The translations under genes and the position numbers were made by a program. A stretch of 64,000 nucleotides of DNA, from the IMG/VR virus record IMGVR_UViG_3300044716_000883, positions 1 to 64,000 of that record; one strand, written 5' to 3'. This stretch comes from a virus. Below, in pieces: positions 1,456 to 33,290 of the stretch (position 1 is the stretch's first letter; the number at the start of each line of letters is the position of its first letter). The notes beneath the pieces are model-generated. The model was given only the letters and a program-made list of their open reading frames with translations. It was not told the DNA's origin and did not search any database.

Positions 1456-1551
1456 ATGGAAGAATTAATTATATGGGGCTATGTCGTTATAGCTATATTA
1501 TCAGCATTCGGTGCTGTAAACATGATTAGACAAATCAATAAATTAAAGTAA
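1456..1551 (+). CDS. 31-aa single-TM micro-protein (not in ORF track)
   Basis: MEELIIWGYVVIAILSAFGAVNMIRQINKLK* fills the queE-folE gap. Confidence 0.5.
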   Translation: MEELIIWGYVVIAILSAFGAVNMIRQINKLK

Positions 1552-1562
1552 AAAATAAATAA

Positions 1563-2195
1563 ATGGAACTATTAAAAAAATCAAATGGTAATTTAGCTCG
1601 TACACCAGAAGAGATTGAGCAAATGATTAATAATGCATCTGAGGCGTATGCTCAGTTCCTTACAGCAGTGGGGTTTGATTACAAAGCGGATAGACAAACT
1701 GAAGATACACCTCGTCGTGTAGCTAAAGCGTGGTTAAAGGACTTAATCGTAGGTAGTATTAGTGATGAACCAAACATTACAGTATTCCCTAATGATGAAG
1801 GATATGATGGATTAGTAATCCAATCAGGTATCCCTATTGTTAGTATGTGTGCTCACCACAATTTAGCATTTACAGGATATGCTACTGTAGCATATGTTCC
1901 TGCTGAAAACGTTATTGGTTTAAGTAAATTAAATCGTATCGTTGAATGGTTTGGACGTAGACCACAAATGCAAGAGTCATTAACAACACAAATCCACGAT
2001 TATATTGCTAATAAAATGCAATGTGAATCAGTAGCAGTTAGTATTGCTTGTAAGCATACATGTTGCTCACATAGAGGTATTAAACACGGTTCTACTATGA
2101 CTACAAATAAGTTTAGTGGTGTGTTTATGGAAAAAGATAATTTAATTAGAGAAGAATTCTTACACGCGATTGAAGTAAATGGAACAAAATTCTAA
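1563..2195 (+). CDS. folE: GTP cyclohydrolase I
   Basis: DTPRRVAK, SMCAHH, IGLSKLNRIV, RPQMQESLT, HTCCSHRG motifs. Confidence 0.96.
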   Translation: MELLKKSNGNLARTPEEIEQMINNASEAYAQFLTAVGFDYKADRQTEDTPRRVAKAWLKDLIVGSISDEPNITVFPNDEGYDGLVIQSGIPIVSMCAHHNLAFTGYATVAYVPAENVIGLSKLNRIVEWFGRRPQMQESLTTQIHDYIANKMQCESVAVSIACKHTCCSHRGIKHGSTMTTNKFSGVFMEKDNLIREEFLHAIEVNGTKF

Positions 2196-2196
2196 T

Positions 2197-2589
2197 ATGA
2201 ACAAAAGATTTATTACCTGGGACTATATTGAGACTGCTGTGAATAACATAGCGTCTCAAATAGAATCCAGTGGGCTAGATATTCAATATATATTTGGAAT
2301 GCCTAGAGGAGGATTAATACCTGCTGTAATGTTATCTCATAAATTAAACATTCCATTATTTAAATTTGGAATGGTACTAGATAGTAAAGTACTAATAGTA
2401 GATGATATCTGCGATTCAGGACTAACATTACACAAGTATAATGTTCCAACAGCAACAATTCATACAAAAGAATCTGCATCCGTACAACCAACATTCCACT
2501 ACGAAGTAGTAGATAAAGATTGGATAGTTTATCCATGGGAAAGAGCAGATTCAAAAACAATACAAGATTATGCAACCAAAGGAGAGTAA
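2197..2589 (+). CDS. type I phosphoribosyltransferase (gpt-like)
   Basis: GMPRGGLIPA, PRPP-binding VLIVDDICDSGLTL, WIVYPWE; likely start is the ATG at 2197 rather than 2179. Confidence 0.85.
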   Translation: MNKRFITWDYIETAVNNIASQIESSGLDIQYIFGMPRGGLIPAVMLSHKLNIPLFKFGMVLDSKVLIVDDICDSGLTLHKYNVPTATIHTKESASVQPTFHYEVVDKDWIVYPWERADSKTIQDYATKGE

Positions 2590-2728
2590 AACAAATTGGC
2601 ATTTTTCAATTAGTTTCGCTAAATCATTAATCAGAATGGGTGCCTGTATTGGGCTTCTATTTAGTACTGGAATATTTGTTCTAGGAATGATAATAGCTGA
2701 AGTACTTGGAATTGTAGAAGAACTTTAA
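2570..2728 (+). CDS. 52-aa membrane protein (not in ORF track)
   Basis: MQPKESKTNWHFSISFAKSLIRMGACIGLLFSTGIFVLGMIIAEVLGIVEEL* fills the intergenic gap. Confidence 0.6.
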   Translation: MQPKESKTNWHFSISFAKSLIRMGACIGLLFSTGIFVLGMIIAEVLGIVEEL

Positions 2729-2740
2729 TAAATTTAAAAT

Positions 2741-3268
2741 ATGTTAAACGCAAAACAAATTGTAGACGAGGGTCTATTATTATTAGAAACAACACAAGGT
2801 AAACCGGCACAAGTAGGTTATGACTTATCACTTAAAGCAGTACAGAAAGTTGGTAATAAAATTGGTGGTAATTTTATAGCGGATGGTAAAATTGGTAAAG
2901 TACTAAAAGATAAAACTGAATTAACCACATATACCCCATTTGAATCTATCAAATTAGATGGTGCTGAAGGATGGTTATTATATGAAGGTGTATACGATAT
3001 TACATTTAATGAAGGTTGTAAAATACCTGATAATCGTGTAGCATTCATTAAGCAACGCTCATCATTATATCGTAACGGTGCAATTATCAACAGTCCTGTA
3101 TTTGACCCAGGATTTGAAACACAATATATGGGTACATTATTGTATGTTCATGAAACTATATTCATTGAAAAAGATGCTCGTGTAGCACAAATCTACTTCC
3201 ACGAATGTAATGGTGCTGAATTATACAATGGACAATGGCAAAATGATAAACAGAGAAATTCATTATAA
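2741..3268 (+). CDS. dcd: dCTP deaminase / trimeric dUTPase family protein
   Basis: AQVGYDLSL, QRSSLYRNG, VFDPGF, RVAQIYF motifs. Confidence 0.75.
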   Translation: MLNAKQIVDEGLLLLETTQGKPAQVGYDLSLKAVQKVGNKIGGNFIADGKIGKVLKDKTELTTYTPFESIKLDGAEGWLLYEGVYDITFNEGCKIPDNRVAFIKQRSSLYRNGAIINSPVFDPGFETQYMGTLLYVHETIFIEKDARVAQIYFHECNGAELYNGQWQNDKQRNSL

Positions 3269-3271
3269 TAA

Positions 3272-4990
3272 ATGGATAATCTAGTAAAAAAAGTTTTAGA
3301 TAGTGGGGGTTCTATTACCCCCCTACTAATACCCTCTGATTTAACAAACGGAACAGGTTTAATGAACCCATCAATATACGTTGATAAGGGTAAATTAATC
3401 CTTAATCTCCGTCACGTTAATTATACACTATATCACTGCGAAGGAGAACAATTATTTATTAATCGTTGGGGTCCCTTATCATACCTAAACCCAGAAAACG
3501 ATATCCACTTAAGAACAACAAATTGGCTTTGTGAGCTAAACGATGATCTAACAATTAAAAATTGGAACAAAGTAGATACATCAAAGCTTGATGTTGAGCC
3601 TGTTTGGGAATTTATTGGATTAGAAGATGGTAGATTGGTAAGGTGGGATGATAAACTATATTTGTGTGGTGTTAGAAGAGATACTAAAACTAATGGTGAG
3701 GGTAGAATGGAACTATCTGAACTAAAAAAACACAAAGAAGTAAAGCGTAGTAGAATAGAACCACCAAACGATCCAAACTCATACTGTGAGAAAAATTGGA
3801 TGCCTATTATTGATATGCCTTATCACTTTGTAAAATGGACTAATCCAACTGAAGTAGTAAAGGTAAATCCTGAAACTAATACTTCTGAAACAGTAGTATT
3901 AAAAGAAGGTGTAGGTGAATTTCAAAATTTAAGAGGTGGATCTCAAATTATTCCTTATGGTGATGATAGAATCTGTATTATTCATGAAGTAGATTTATGG
4001 AAAAATAAATTAGAACAAAGAGACGCTAAATATACTCATCGACTAGTAATATGGGATAAAGACTGGAATATAAAACACATCTCAGAACCTTTTAGTTTTA
4101 TGGGTGGTGAAATAGAATTCTGCTGTGGGTTAGCTAAATACCAAGACAATTTACTTATCACTTTTGGATTTCAAGATAATGCCGCTTATATATTGAAAAT
4201 GCCAATTACTTTTCTAGATAATTTTATTAGAAATAATAAAAAATTAAATGGACTTAAACTAGCTAATTGTATTAGTTTAGAAAGTTCAAAAGATAGACAG
4301 TCAAAAACAATAGACGAATTCTGTAAATTTGGAACTGATGTTAAAATAATACAAGCATATGATGGTAGAGTAACGGATTATCAAAATAATCCCACAGTTG
4401 AAGGACTATACCTACACCAAATGGATTCGGGAGCAATAGCAACTGTATTATCACACTTGAAAGCTATTAAAGATTGGTATAACACCACAAACGAAGATTA
4501 TGGTTTTTTTTGTGAAGATGATATGTTAATAAGCAATGCTAATAATTGGTTATTTAATTGGGATGATGTTATAAATAATTTACCTAAAGGTTGGAAAGCA
4601 ATACAACTTTCTGTTATTAAAGATATAAAAGAAAGTGATATGAAATTAAACATTAGAAAATGGGATAATTGGGCATGTGGTGCTTATATATTGAGTAGAA
4701 CTTATGTAAAAACAATAATAGATAAATATTATCCTAATGATAAATTTATATTAATAAATGATAATTTAATACCATTAGTTGAAAATATAATATACGGCGT
4801 TGAAAATAAAGACATCTACACATTACCTTTATTTACAGAAGATATTTCTTTTAAATCAACATTTTACCCAAAATTTATTGATACTGAATATAAAAATAGT
4901 CAAAAATCTAGTGCAGATTTTATAAAAAATTGGTGGGAAAAAATAGGCAAAACCAAAACAATTAAAGAATTATGCAAGATAGATTATTAA
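3272..4990 (+). CDS. fusion of a GH130/PH1107-like beta-propeller glycosidase and a GT25-like glycosyltransferase
   Basis: N-part has NPSI, GLEDGRL, EKNWMP, RGGSQ, EFCCGL, FGFQDN; C-part has SHLKAI, FFCEDD, CGAYILSR. Confidence 0.75.
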   Translation: MDNLVKKVLDSGGSITPLLIPSDLTNGTGLMNPSIYVDKGKLILNLRHVNYTLYHCEGEQLFINRWGPLSYLNPENDIHLRTTNWLCELNDDLTIKNWNKVDTSKLDVEPVWEFIGLEDGRLVRWDDKLYLCGVRRDTKTNGEGRMELSELKKHKEVKRSRIEPPNDPNSYCEKNWMPIIDMPYHFVKWTNPTEVVKVNPETNTSETVVLKEGVGEFQNLRGGSQIIPYGDDRICIIHEVDLWKNKLEQRDAKYTHRLVIWDKDWNIKHISEPFSFMGGEIEFCCGLAKYQDNLLITFGFQDNAAYILKMPITFLDNFIRNNKKLNGLKLANCISLESSKDRQSKTIDEFCKFGTDVKIIQAYDGRVTDYQNNPTVEGLYLHQMDSGAIATVLSHLKAIKDWYNTTNEDYGFFCEDDMLISNANNWLFNWDDVINNLPKGWKAIQLSVIKDIKESDMKLNIRKWDNWACGAYILSRTYVKTIIDKYYPNDKFILINDNLIPLVENIIYGVENKDIYTLPLFTEDISFKSTFYPKFIDTEYKNSQKSSADFIKNWWEKIGKTKTIKELCKIDY

Positions 4991-31825: not shown

Positions 31826-31925
31826 AGCCGAATCGTAATCGGAAAACCAAGTGCAAAAGCTCAACCACGGCCGTGGAAGCACAGGCTAACGACCTAATAT
31901 GAGCCAGGTATAGGGGTGCTATACC
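31826..31925 (+). ncRNA. unassigned structured RNA between tRNA-Thr and tRNA-Ser
   Basis: Several short GC helices, including a 7-bp GGTATAG/CTATACC stem; no family recognised. Confidence 0.35.
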
Positions 31926-31929
31926 AAAT

Positions 31930-32123: not shown

Positions 32124-32351
32124 ATGTTTTGGACAATTTACGCAATAAGCGTTATTTATTGCTTTTATCAATTAGTAAAACGCTACAGAGCAACTGACTT
32201 AAGAGGTGGTGGATTAGATTCAGCCCCAGGATTAGATGGAGTTATGGTACTTTTCCTAGCACCAGTATTAGCTGTAGTTGACGTTACTTTAACTTGGATA
32301 AGAATTTATAAAGAAGCTGAAGAAGCAAGACGAAGAAACAATACACTGTAG
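32124..32351 (+). CDS. small 2-TM membrane protein within the tRNA cluster
   Basis: Two hydrophobic segments; its stop overlaps the 5' end of the tRNA-like RNA. Confidence 0.55.
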   Translation: MFWTIYAISVIYCFYQLVKRYRATDLRGGGLDSAPGLDGVMVLFLAPVLAVVDVTLTWIRIYKEAEEARRRNNTL

Positions 32352-32505
32352 GGTGGCGGAATAGAGGTAGCTCCTCGTGGCAGACGTGCCCTCTCGTCTA
32401 GGGGGTGCTGATCAGAGACAGATGTAAGATATGGGTTGACCACAAAGCCGGCTTATTTGTCTTACATTGAATCGCAGCGTGCTGGTTCAACCCCAGCCCC
32501 TACAG
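32347..32505 (+). ncRNA. 159-nt tRNA-like RNA with a D-loop hairpin insertion and a 75-nt variable arm
   Basis: Acceptor TGTAGGG/CCCTACA plus G73; Leu-type D arm; anticodon arm CCCTC-TCGTCTA-GGGGG; T arm GCTGG-TTCAACC-CCAGC. Confidence 0.7.
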
Positions 32506-32510
32506 CAAAT

Positions 32511-32596
32511 GCCTTGGTGGTGAAATAGGTAGACACGCAGGACTTAAAATCCTGTTCGCAGCAATGCGAGTGCGAGTTCGATTCTCGCCTGAGGCA
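32511..32596 (+). tRNA. tRNA-Leu (TAA)
   Basis: GCCTTGG/CTGAGGC, CAGGA-CTTAAAA-TCCTG, variable arm, A73. Confidence 0.92.
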
Positions 32597-32611
32597 CAAA
32601 TAATTATATAC

Positions 32612-32944
32612 ATGGCATGTCACTGCTTATACTTGAAAAATTCAGATGAATTTTACTCATTATTAAAGAGTAGAGATTCAGATATGATCATGAAGATGGT
32701 CAAATGTGTACTTAGTGCAGCTAAACGAAATAAAAAAACCATCGATATATTTGATATCACGTTCAAAAATACAGATGGTTTGATTTTTACTATTGATAAA
32801 TCGCAGTATACCGAATTATTAAGCAACTGCCTAAACGATCTAATCGCACTTGAAGAATACGAATTGTGCGCTGAGATCAAGAAATTTATTGATAAGAAAT
32901 CAAAAAGTAAAAAATCAGGGGATGTCCAGGTATTTGATCTATAA
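32612..32944 (+). CDS. hypothetical protein with a UVR-like C-terminal motif
   Basis: ALEEYELCAEIKK; the track start at 32564 lies inside tRNA-Leu so 32612 is preferred; the last 27 nt overlap the tmRNA. Confidence 0.55.
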   Translation: MACHCLYLKNSDEFYSLLKSRDSDMIMKMVKCVLSAAKRNKKTIDIFDITFKNTDGLIFTIDKSQYTELLSNCLNDLIALEEYELCAEIKKFIDKKSKSKKSGDVQVFDL

Positions 32945-33283
32945 TCTGGAGGTAGTACCACACGCGGACAAAGCATGAATGTCCTTAAACCCTTGCGAAA
33001 CAATAACTGTAGAATTATCTACTATGACCTTCGACGACATGATGTCTTTCGTAGGTGCGAACGAGTACGCATTAGCGGCTTAATTAGCGTCGGGTGTAAC
33101 ATCCTAGGAACAGAAGTTACAAGCAGTTTACCCAAACGTTAAATGGGTTGGTGGAACGCTATACTAACCATATGGCCCCAATTCTTTTGGAACAGTAGTA
33201 AGATTAAACTGTTAAACTAAGCGTGTGAGACGTTGGTATTATTGTTCGTTATAGAGACACCGGTTCGACTCCGGTCATCTCCA
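32918..33283 (+). ncRNA. ssrA: tmRNA
   Basis: GGGGATG/CATCTCC acceptor with G3:U70 and A73; T arm ACCGG-TTCGACT-CCGGT; tag ORF 33009-33083 VELSTMTFDDMMSFVGANEYALAA* after ATAACT. Confidence 0.93.
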
Positions 33284-33290
33284 CAACTTA

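Follow-up and report, generated by a model that had tools for sequence, protein, structure and literature searches.

A predicted tRNA-like RNA with a giant variable arm in the tRNA cluster of a lake phage, shared with Bacteroidota

Some tRNAs work off the ribosome, for instance tRNA-Gly in cell-wall synthesis, Glu-tRNA in haem synthesis, and tRNA-Asn and tRNA-Gln in amide amino-acid synthesis. YrlA, a non-coding RNA also present in some phages, combines a tRNA-like core of D and T loops with a protein-binding module; its ends belong to a Ro-binding stem, the 'acceptor' being closed. Allo-tRNAs, found by metagenome mining in bacteria and phages, harbour an 8/4 or 9/3 acceptor/T-stem geometry and have been proposed as decoders (PMC5389517). 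In the large myovirus T4, the tRNA cluster contains the small stable RNAs C and D (rnaC and rnaD), whose function is unknown (PMC3014915, PMC9697503). With regard to asparagine, the pair U1-A72 lets the bacterial amidotransferase GatCAB amidate Asp carried by tRNA-Asn, while G1-C72 and U20A block this reaction on tRNA-Asp (PMC1635274). Here, we focus on a 159-nt RNA gene on the forward strand of a lake phage, at positions 32347-32505 of a 64,000-nt stretch of DNA (positions 1 to 64,000 of IMG/VR record IMGVR_UViG_3300044716_000883), named hereafter the window.

Judged by comparison with its relatives, this element, which lies inside the phage genome's only tRNA cluster, is a real tRNA-shaped RNA gene kept by selection, and the phage copy of a large RNA family of Bacteroidota that is not catalogued in Rfam. 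That members of this family are charged and work off the ribosome seems likely to us. A narrower proposal, which we favour tentatively and regard as somewhat short of probable, is that the RNA is a processed carrier charged by aspartyl-tRNA synthetase (AspRS) and perhaps amidated by GatCAB, the phage copy then being an auxiliary gene. The window copy is made up of the following parts.

32347-32505 (+): whole tRNA-like RNA, from U1 to the discriminator base G73; 135.2 bits (E = 3.6e-37) against the family covariance model, over the full model length.
32347-32353 (+): 5' strand of the acceptor stem, UGUAGGG, pairing with 32498-32504.
32356-32387 (+): D arm, with a 3-bp stem (GCG/CGU) whose pairs covary, A14 and A15 in the loop, and the G18G19 equivalent at 32379-32380.
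32364-32376 (+): 13-nt hairpin inserted in the D loop, GAGG-UAGCU-CCUC, preceding the G18G19 equivalent.
32389-32405 (+): anticodon-like arm, with a 5-bp stem (CCCUC/GGGGG) and a 7-nt loop (UCGUCUA) in which G34, U35 and C36 occupy 32396-32398.
32407-32478 (+): giant variable arm of 72 nt, with a base helix of 4 bp, a bulge, a 3-bp helix, an internal loop, a 10-bp helix and a branched tip.
32432-32444 (+): tip hairpin Ha, U-GGG-UUGA-CC-A-C-A, the most conserved block of the arm.
32445-32454 (+): tip hairpin Hb, AAGCCGGCUU, perfectly palindromic and spacer-less.
32481-32497 (+): T arm, GCUGG-UUCAACC-CCAGC, with the canonical GGUUCRANYCC T-loop signature.
32498-32506 (+): 3' strand of the acceptor stem, CCCUACA, followed by G73 (32505) and C74 (32506); CCA is not encoded.

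The core also has U8 and G9, and the anticodon-like loop carries C33, GUC, U37 and A38. The giant arm is closed by GCTG/CAGC, its 10-bp helix is formed by ATGTAAGATA and TGTCTTACAT, and its internal loop (GAGACAG on one side, UGAA on the other) is conserved. A first-pass annotation, made by a model from the window's letters, had pointed out the acceptor, T and D arms, the D-loop hairpin, the TC-GTC-TA loop, the GCTG/CAGC closure and the 10-bp helix, and all of them are in the sequence; the arm that it described is likewise present and structured, but its bounds shift from 32406-32480 to 32407-32478.

Taken by itself, the element does not fold significantly (z = -1.18, with 18 of 200 shuffles folding as well or better), and the case therefore rests on the comparison with relatives. 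The first ten relatives came from loci that surround homologues of a neighbouring protein. IMG/VR was scanned with a pattern combining the arm motif and the T loop; at least 120 phage contigs matched, and they yielded at least 98 distinct full-length phage copies of 141-176 nt. A blastn comparison of the region with 50,697 deposited phage genomes returned generic tRNA matches only. In what follows, phage counts out of 98 refer to the relatives and those out of 99 to the phage copies, 59 is the number of bacterial copies, and 158 covers both; pair counts come from a MAFFT alignment of 70 sequences that was not fitted to any structure. In this alignment, 97.5% of the cells are paired, compared with 40-54% after a shift of the 3' partners by 1-3 columns, and 31 of the 41 pairs show changes on both sides, the observed values being reached by none of 500 shuffles. 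The first-pass annotation had proposed a covariance model across jumbo phages as a check, and these compensatory changes rule out a normal tRNA with random, non-compensated insertions. Both-side changes affect three of the four pairs at the arm base, all three pairs of the 3-bp helix, and eight of the ten pairs of the 10-bp helix; compensatory changes are found in all five pairs of the anticodon-like stem, and the closing pair of Ha covaries as well (G-C in 36 sequences, U-A in 29). The T stem covaries in three of its five pairs, G53-C61 and G52-C62 being invariant. Across the family, the tRNA core is intact (U8, A14, the A15-U48 pair, G18G19, the T loop), as is the 7/5 acceptor/T-stem geometry. 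The covariance model built from the 70 relatives recovers the window copy with 135 bits (E = 4e-37). ARAGORN at default settings makes no call on the element, and a known Rfam family, which the annotation had kept as an alternative, is not matched either at the gathering threshold or at E<=10, RF00005 included.

The arm ranges from 45 to 110 nt across the family. Its tip block can be written N-GGGUNGACCAC-N', to which phages add a second hairpin. GGGUNGACCAC is invariant in the phage copies, with the caveat that the pattern by which they were collected contained it, and it is present in 47 of the 59 bacterial copies found by the covariance model.

These bacterial copies come from a pattern scan of prokaryotes with one genome per species, which gave at least 59 copies confirmed by the covariance model, in at least 45 contigs from genomes and metagenome-assembled genomes. 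They score 89-151 bits and, among the matches listed, all belong to Bacteroidota, the carriers being Pedobacter, Dyadobacter, Spirosoma, Arcicella, Flectobacillus, Chitinophagaceae, Saprospiraceae and Cytophagales. Pattern matches in Streptomyces, Acidobacteriota and other phyla were set aside as chance hits, with no family-level match to the covariance model; two weak matches outside Bacteroidota (29-33 bits over about 71 nt) resemble ordinary tRNAs. In six bacterial loci, Rfam at the gathering threshold made no call. Several bacterial genomes carry two or three copies in tandem, as in the loci below. Some tandem copies are short (108-122 nt): the GUC loop and the arm base persist in them, but the GGGUNGACCAC tip is missing. 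In Pedobacter, the short copy is the upstream one, of 108-114 nt, and its arm is a simple one of 45 nt that lacks this tip.

Locus L255, 5197-5310 and 5386-5530: tandem copies.
Locus L227, 3384-3941: tandem copies.
Locus L264, 10-518: tandem copies.
Locus L249, 4108-4521: tandem copies.
Locus L283, 5419-5771: tandem copies.

The first-pass annotation had seen in the element a functional, non-decoding tRNA mimic. The covariation and the bases at positions 33 and 37 uphold that part of the claim, but not two of the forms suggested for it, a Y-RNA-like scaffold and an intron-containing precursor. The former does not agree with the absence of any Rfam match and with an RNA that ends in a normal acceptor stem. 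As for the latter, in which the arm would be removed from an interrupted gene to leave a normal tRNA, ARAGORN run with its intron option and a lowered threshold can be forced to a tRNA-Gln(UUG) with a 74-nt 'intron', but the D and anticodon stems of this fold are poor, and the covarying helices contradict it. The arm itself covaries and holds the most conserved sequence of the RNA, without group I or II features or an Rfam intron match; its removal would leave a GUC loop with U37 and a variable loop of 3 nt, and the short bacterial paralogues still have a 45-nt arm. We hold splicing to be very improbable indeed. Three other candidates were rejected. A tmRNA is proposed by ARAGORN only at a 70% threshold, with the tag 'not identified', and is contradicted by the covarying helices. 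A reading frame in the arm (GAC CAC AAA ... UGA) is broken by indels of 1-2 nt, whichever frame is taken, and the core of a would-be hammerhead or hairpin ribozyme (GUC plus CUGAUCA...GA) is not conserved across the family.

Among canonical tRNAs, the best match to the covariance model is Bacteroidota tRNA-Leu(GAG) with about 50-56 bits, which has the same D arm, GUGGCGGAAUUGGCAGAC, and so bears out the Leu-type D arm recognised in the first-pass annotation; T4 tRNA-Ser (32 bits) and the window's own tRNA-Ser (21 bits) come next. Since class II tRNAs, tRNA-Leu(GAG) foremost, are the best matches, the family is best described, from its sequence relationships, as a derivative of class II tRNA-Leu in which the discriminator (A73 to G), the first two acceptor pairs and the loop have changed. 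The A73 discriminator of leucyl-tRNA synthetase (LeuRS) is replaced throughout by an invariant G73, which is an antideterminant for that enzyme (PMC9976931).

The acceptor end is subject to severe conservation. Pairs 3-7 vary freely and covary, but the pair 1-72 is U-A in 70/70 sequences and the pair 2-71 G-C in 69/70; position 72 is A in all copies, and 58 of the 59 bacterial copies have 5' UGU and 3' ACAG, the remaining one being cut by the contig end. The base following G73 is C in 98/98 relatives, the rest of CCA not being encoded, and an end in C or CCA is found in each of the 460 canonical tRNAs called in these loci. Upstream, position -1 is U in 79/98 and C in 17/98, and position -2 is A in 91/98. 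Because of this leader, A(-2) and U/C(-1), and of the encoded C74, we infer that the RNA is matured like the neighbouring tRNAs, by RNase P cleavage and 3' finishing, and that it would thereby receive a CCA end.

In the anticodon-like loop, G34-U35-C36 is invariant (158/158 copies), and U37 is found in 151 of the 158, that is, in 92/99 phage copies and 59/59 bacterial ones. Base 33 varies in phages (U in 60/99, C in 34, A in 4 and G in 1), so that 39/99 have a base other than U, compared with 5/59 among bacterial copies, of which 54 have U33. At position 38, C is found in 92/99 phage and 59/59 bacterial copies, but the window copy carries A, and its loop type, UCGUCUA, is rare (4/98 relatives). 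Canonical tRNAs have a purine at position 37, and the near-universal U37 together with the variable base 33 makes routine decoding unlikely. An unusual tRNA-Asp that decodes GAY codons, with the arm as a tolerated or regulatory appendage, would agree with the intact core, the 5-bp anticodon stem and 7-nt loop, the invariant GUC and C74, the U33 of most bacterial copies, and a phage that has no other tRNA-Asp and uses GAU and GAC codons frequently. We nevertheless judge it improbable, in view not only of positions 33 and 37 but also of the canonical tRNA-Asp carried in addition by 14 phage loci, and of the silence of ARAGORN at default settings and of RF00005. A second, regulator-linked tRNA-Asp with an arm of 45-110 nt would furthermore be without precedent. 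At the acceptor end, U1-A72 replaces G1-C72, a pair that is strictly conserved in bacterial tRNA-Asp and, in E. coli AspRS, contributes to positioning the 3' end (PMC9976931).

The acceptor end and the GUC triplet of such an RNA would be read by proteins, and the question is then by which ones. The bacterial Asp identity set consists of G73, G10, G34, U35, C36 and C38, with G2-C71 as a minor determinant (PMC9976931). G73, G34, U35 and C36 are all present in the window copy, as is G10, and across the alignment position 10 belongs to a G-C pair in 34 and a G-U pair in 8 of 70 sequences. The GatCAB determinant U1-A72 is likewise present, in the window copy as in the family, which thus pairs Asp anticodon marks with an Asn/Gln-type acceptor end.

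The same positions can be read for serine, the GUC being then kept for another partner than seryl-tRNA synthetase (SerRS). Bacterial Ser identity involves G73, C72, G2-C71, R4-Y69, C11-G24 and a large variable region; tRNA-Leu has C2-G71, an antideterminant for SerRS, where the family has G2-C71, LeuRS is blocked by G73, and A73 of human tRNA-Leu acts as an antideterminant against SerRS (PMC9976931). G73, G2-C71 and a large variable arm are present here, tRNA-Ser is the best match to the covariance model after tRNA-Leu, and it is also the commonest upstream neighbour of the phage copies (25 loci). However, position 72 is A throughout instead of C, and the pair 4-69 is A-U in 49, C-G in 17, G-C in 2 and U-A in 2 sequences, hence R-Y in only 51/70. 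SerRS ignores the anticodon, so the conserved GUC and C38 would need a second reader; the arm base has 4 bp followed by a bulge, as opposed to the continuous helix of tRNA-Ser arms, and the AsnC/GatB context described below offers no obvious link to serine. Charging by SerRS appears rather unlikely to us.

The genomic context in Bacteroidota points to asparagine. In 35 of 45 bacterial loci, a gene for a protein of about 156 residues lies upstream of the RNA in divergent orientation, at a median distance of 175 nt, and no other conserved neighbour gene was found in the 45 loci, downstream included. This protein belongs to the Lrp/AsnC family, with AsnC as its best NCBIfam match (157-179 bits, under the equivalog cut-off of 227 bits) compared with 48-56 bits for Lrp. 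Co-occurrence was analysed in an even sample of 151 Bacteroidota genomes, of which 14 have a clear copy of the RNA and one more has a divergent copy. Orthologues of the regulator (at least 53% identity) occur in 16 of these genomes, 15 of which have the RNA, adjacent and divergent in ten. More distant relatives of the regulator (39-47% identity) are found in genomes without GatB, and their neighbours are unrelated, bar one: a genome with neither the RNA nor GatB has the AsnC-like gene back to back with the gene for an AsnB-type asparagine synthase, in the arrangement that the RNA has elsewhere.

Locus L367 (G119:C1), 1495-1941 (-): AsnC-like gene.
Locus L367 (G119:C1), 2060-3438 (+): AsnB-type asparagine synthase gene.

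In another Bacteroidota genome, a class IIb aminoacyl-tRNA synthetase gene (Pfam tRNA-synt_2) precedes the RNA by about 210 nt on the same strand, the AsnC-like gene being on another contig. This synthetase is probably the housekeeping lysyl-tRNA synthetase (LysRS).

Locus L330 (G075:C6), 1501-1650 (-): RNA.
Locus L330 (G075:C6), 1864-3147 (-): class IIb synthetase gene.

The tight pairing with an amino-acid-responsive regulator also suggests a regulatory tRNA mimic, which would signal the Asn/Asp status through its charging or through binding to a synthetase, GatCAB or the AsnC-like protein, without passing on any amino acid. A stand-alone gene with no conserved gene downstream and a conserved arm motif resembling a protein or RNA binding site are in keeping with such a role. 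On the other hand, the data point to no particular target or partner, the phage copies lack the regulator, and the tandem duplicates, some of them without the arm motif, fit a dosage-dependent substrate equally well; we regard this signalling role as unlikely.

We return to the carrier charged by AspRS. In this proposal, the L-shaped core derived from tRNA-Leu, whose variable loop has grown into the conserved branched arm (72 nt in the window copy), would be processed to a CCA end as set out above. AspRS would load aspartate, reading U1-A72, G2-C71, G73, GUC and, usually, C38, and GatCAB, by virtue of U1-A72, could convert the carried aspartate into asparagine. With U37, a variable base 33 and so bulky an arm, the RNA would not take part in decoding. 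In Bacteroidota, the gene would be under the control of the divergent AsnC-like regulator and so part of asparagine metabolism, and the phage copy, within a tRNA cluster, may supply the same carrier to an asparagine-hungry phage during infection. With regard to the enzymes, five RNA-bearing genomes were tested and all have AsnRS and GlnRS, the synthetases for asparagine and glutamine, and GatCAB is therefore not needed there for translational Asn-tRNA or Gln-tRNA. AsnA is found in 4/151 genomes, none of them with the RNA, and is too rare to inform.

Several points weigh against this proposal. GatB is present in all 14 genomes with a clear copy of the RNA but also in 126 of the 151 sampled, so that 14/14 would arise by chance with a probability of about 0.07 and the association is not discriminating. 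AsnB scores above the family cut-off in three of the five RNA-bearing genomes, and the carrier would therefore not be their only route to asparagine. On the RNA itself, U1-A72 takes the place of the G1-C72 of tRNA-Asp, and G10 is only partly conserved (42/70). As a class II enzyme, AspRS approaches tRNA from the variable-loop side, where an arm of 72 nt could get in its way. A D-loop hairpin is present in most phage copies, and the GatCAB antideterminant U20A of tRNA-Asp also enlarges the D loop (PMC1635274); the D loop of the window copy is of the class II type, its 13-nt hairpin lying before G18G19, a different place from 20A. The window copy is itself atypical (C33, A38), and the AspRS/GatCAB step is consequently weaker for it than for the family; a U32-A38 pair could moreover narrow its anticodon-like loop to 5 nt. 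Finally, a carrier that does not decode would need some other way to hand over its asparagine.

Phage copies differ from bacterial ones in several respects. They lack the AsnC-like regulator, their neighbours being tRNA genes or small open reading frames (ORFs): other tRNAs are found in 67/98 phage loci, and the element often lies less than 300 nt from canonical tRNA genes on the same strand. A D-loop insert is present in 63/99 phage copies compared with 2/59 copies from bacterial genome bins. These inserts vary in length and sequence but remain hairpins, and 46% of them are spacer-less palindromes, compared with 5% of shuffles. At the arm tip, Hb is a perfect palindrome of at least 8 nt in 81% of the distinct phage copies (8% of shuffles), with 24 different palindromes, for instance AAGCCGGCUU, GCUUGCAAGC and GCCGGCCGGC; in bacterial copies, palindromes are near background, and GNRA or UUCG hairpins are found on the other side of the motif. 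As a hairpin needs no self-complementary loop, this points either to intermolecular loop-loop pairing or to a DNA-level origin of the inserts, as far as the sequences can tell. One phage group (L083, L086, L091, L112, L138, L159 and others) shares a conserved 21-nt D-loop hairpin, GGGUUGUCUCAGUUAUGACCC, whose loop repeats GUCUC, the pentamer of positions 34-38 in the anticodon-like loop.

These differences, namely, base 33, the D-loop hairpins and the palindromic tips, would fit a change of job in phages, and phage tRNAs can counter defences that target tRNAs. The phage copy might then be a decoy or sponge for an anticodon nuclease or another tRNA-directed defence or enzyme, mimicking the anticodon arm of tRNA-Asp or of the GUN tRNAs in general, while the host copy may do something else; a nuclease decoy was the third form suggested in the first-pass annotation. 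But none of the loci examined links the RNA to a nuclease or defence gene, U1-A72, G2-C71, G73 and C74, which are superfluous for an anticodon-loop decoy, are kept as strictly in phages as in hosts, and the arm motif is common to both; we give a decoy a low probability. A bolder version of the carrier proposal, which we find doubtful, is that the RNA is a dedicated AspRS/GatCAB carrier under AsnC, replacing an asparagine synthetase gene, and that phages captured it and evolved the palindromic loops; two or more carriers could then kiss loop to loop, for example to match the two sites of the dimeric class II synthetase.

The phage genome is complete (179,381 bp, with direct terminal repeats and 33% G+C), and a scan with the family covariance model found no second copy of the element in it. 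It has five tRNAs, none for Asp or Asn, and a search of the genome found neither an asparagine synthase (AsnB) nor a class IIb synthetase; Asn accounts for 6.9% of the residues encoded by its long ORFs. The cluster is arranged in the order tRNA-Glu, tRNA-Thr, tRNA-Ser, tRNA-Gln, a 75-aa ORF, the element, tRNA-Leu(UAA), a 110-aa ORF and tmRNA, with the following features around the element.

32124-32351 (+): 75-aa ORF, two predicted hydrophobic helices, no Pfam match.
32511-32597: tRNA-Leu(UAA).
32612-32944 (+): 110-aa ORF, no Pfam match, overlapping the 5' end of the tmRNA by 27 nt.
32918-33284 (+): tmRNA (ARAGORN tag ANEYALAA), a genuine one, 400 nt downstream of the element.

The stop codon TAG of the 75-aa ORF falls within the first five bases of the RNA (CTG TAG, 32346-32351). 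In 33 related phage loci, homologues of this two-helix membrane protein end at the RNA or a few bases before it; in 17, the same upstream place is occupied by a protein of 170 aa. We see no coupling of the upstream protein to the RNA, since the place is taken by different protein families. Between tRNA-Thr and tRNA-Ser, the spacer at 31826-31929 (+) is about 100 nt long, compared with about 5 nt for the other cluster spacers; ARAGORN, Rfam and the family covariance model make no call in it.

If the proposed role is correct, Bacteroidota and their phages use a tRNA-derived RNA as a metabolic cofactor with its own regulator and not as a decoder, which would add a case to the short list of off-ribosome tRNAs and, in phages, represent an RNA-only auxiliary metabolic gene. 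The family is abundant, being found in at least 120 phage contigs and about one in ten of the sampled Bacteroidota genomes, and is left unannotated in genomes and viromes because ARAGORN and Rfam miss it. It also provides a natural example of a tRNA variable region that can expand to a branched structure of up to 110 nt while the core fold is kept. Two old questions could be approached with it, namely, the role of GatCAB in bacteria that already have AsnRS and GlnRS, and what the stable RNAs of phage tRNA clusters that are not tRNAs, such as T4 RNA C and D, do.

We found no description of this family in the papers searched; a catalogue of viral structured RNAs from 2023 (PMC10690425) mentions a candidate overlapping a tRNA-Asp call and may list the family. 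Among known RNAs, YrlA differs from the family in that the ends of the latter form an acceptor stem followed by G73-C74, with no Rfam match at E<=10, and the loci examined showed no Ro/Rsr or RtcB gene in the vicinity of the RNA. For T4 rnaC, alignment of the 3' 92 nt (L202, NC_000866, 2910-3001 (-)) to the family model gives a cloverleaf with a weak score of 16 bits. Its acceptor stem of 7 bp (CGGAACG/CGUUUCG), its T arm (CCGGG-UUCGAAU-CCCGG) and its extra arm are generic tRNA features, but rnaC has a 5' extension and lacks the GUC loop, GGGUNGACCAC, U1-A72 and G73, and we do not claim homology. The allo-tRNAs and irregular class II-type tRNAs (Mukai et al. 2017, PMC5389517) share with the family long variable arms and a mismatch between identity and anticodon; their arms are of ordinary size, however, whereas the family has a far larger arm, the 7/5 geometry and a loop unfit to decode.

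The closest canonical body is that of bacterial class II tRNA-Leu (RF00005), with which the family shares the GUGGCGGAAUUGGCAGAC D arm, the 3-bp D stem, A15-U48, the T arm and a helical extra arm; the 3' end limited to C74 is likewise the same, and the element lies among the phage's tRNA genes. The family differs from tRNA-Leu by G73 instead of A73, by U1-A72 and G2-C71 instead of G1-C72 and C2-G71, by its GUC/U37 loop, and by an arm of 45-110 nt with a conserved branched tip where that of tRNA-Leu has about 15 nt. In terms of the proposed function, the nearest system is tRNA-Asn of the indirect pathway, served by a non-discriminating AspRS and GatCAB (PMC1635274). Both have U1-A72, G73 and G34-U35, the family resides in genomes with GatB, and its AsnC-like link points to asparagine. 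The family differs by C36 instead of U36, its class II body, its giant arm and U37 instead of A37 (PMC9976931), and, whereas tRNA-Asn delivers its amino acid to the ribosome, the family RNA probably does not.

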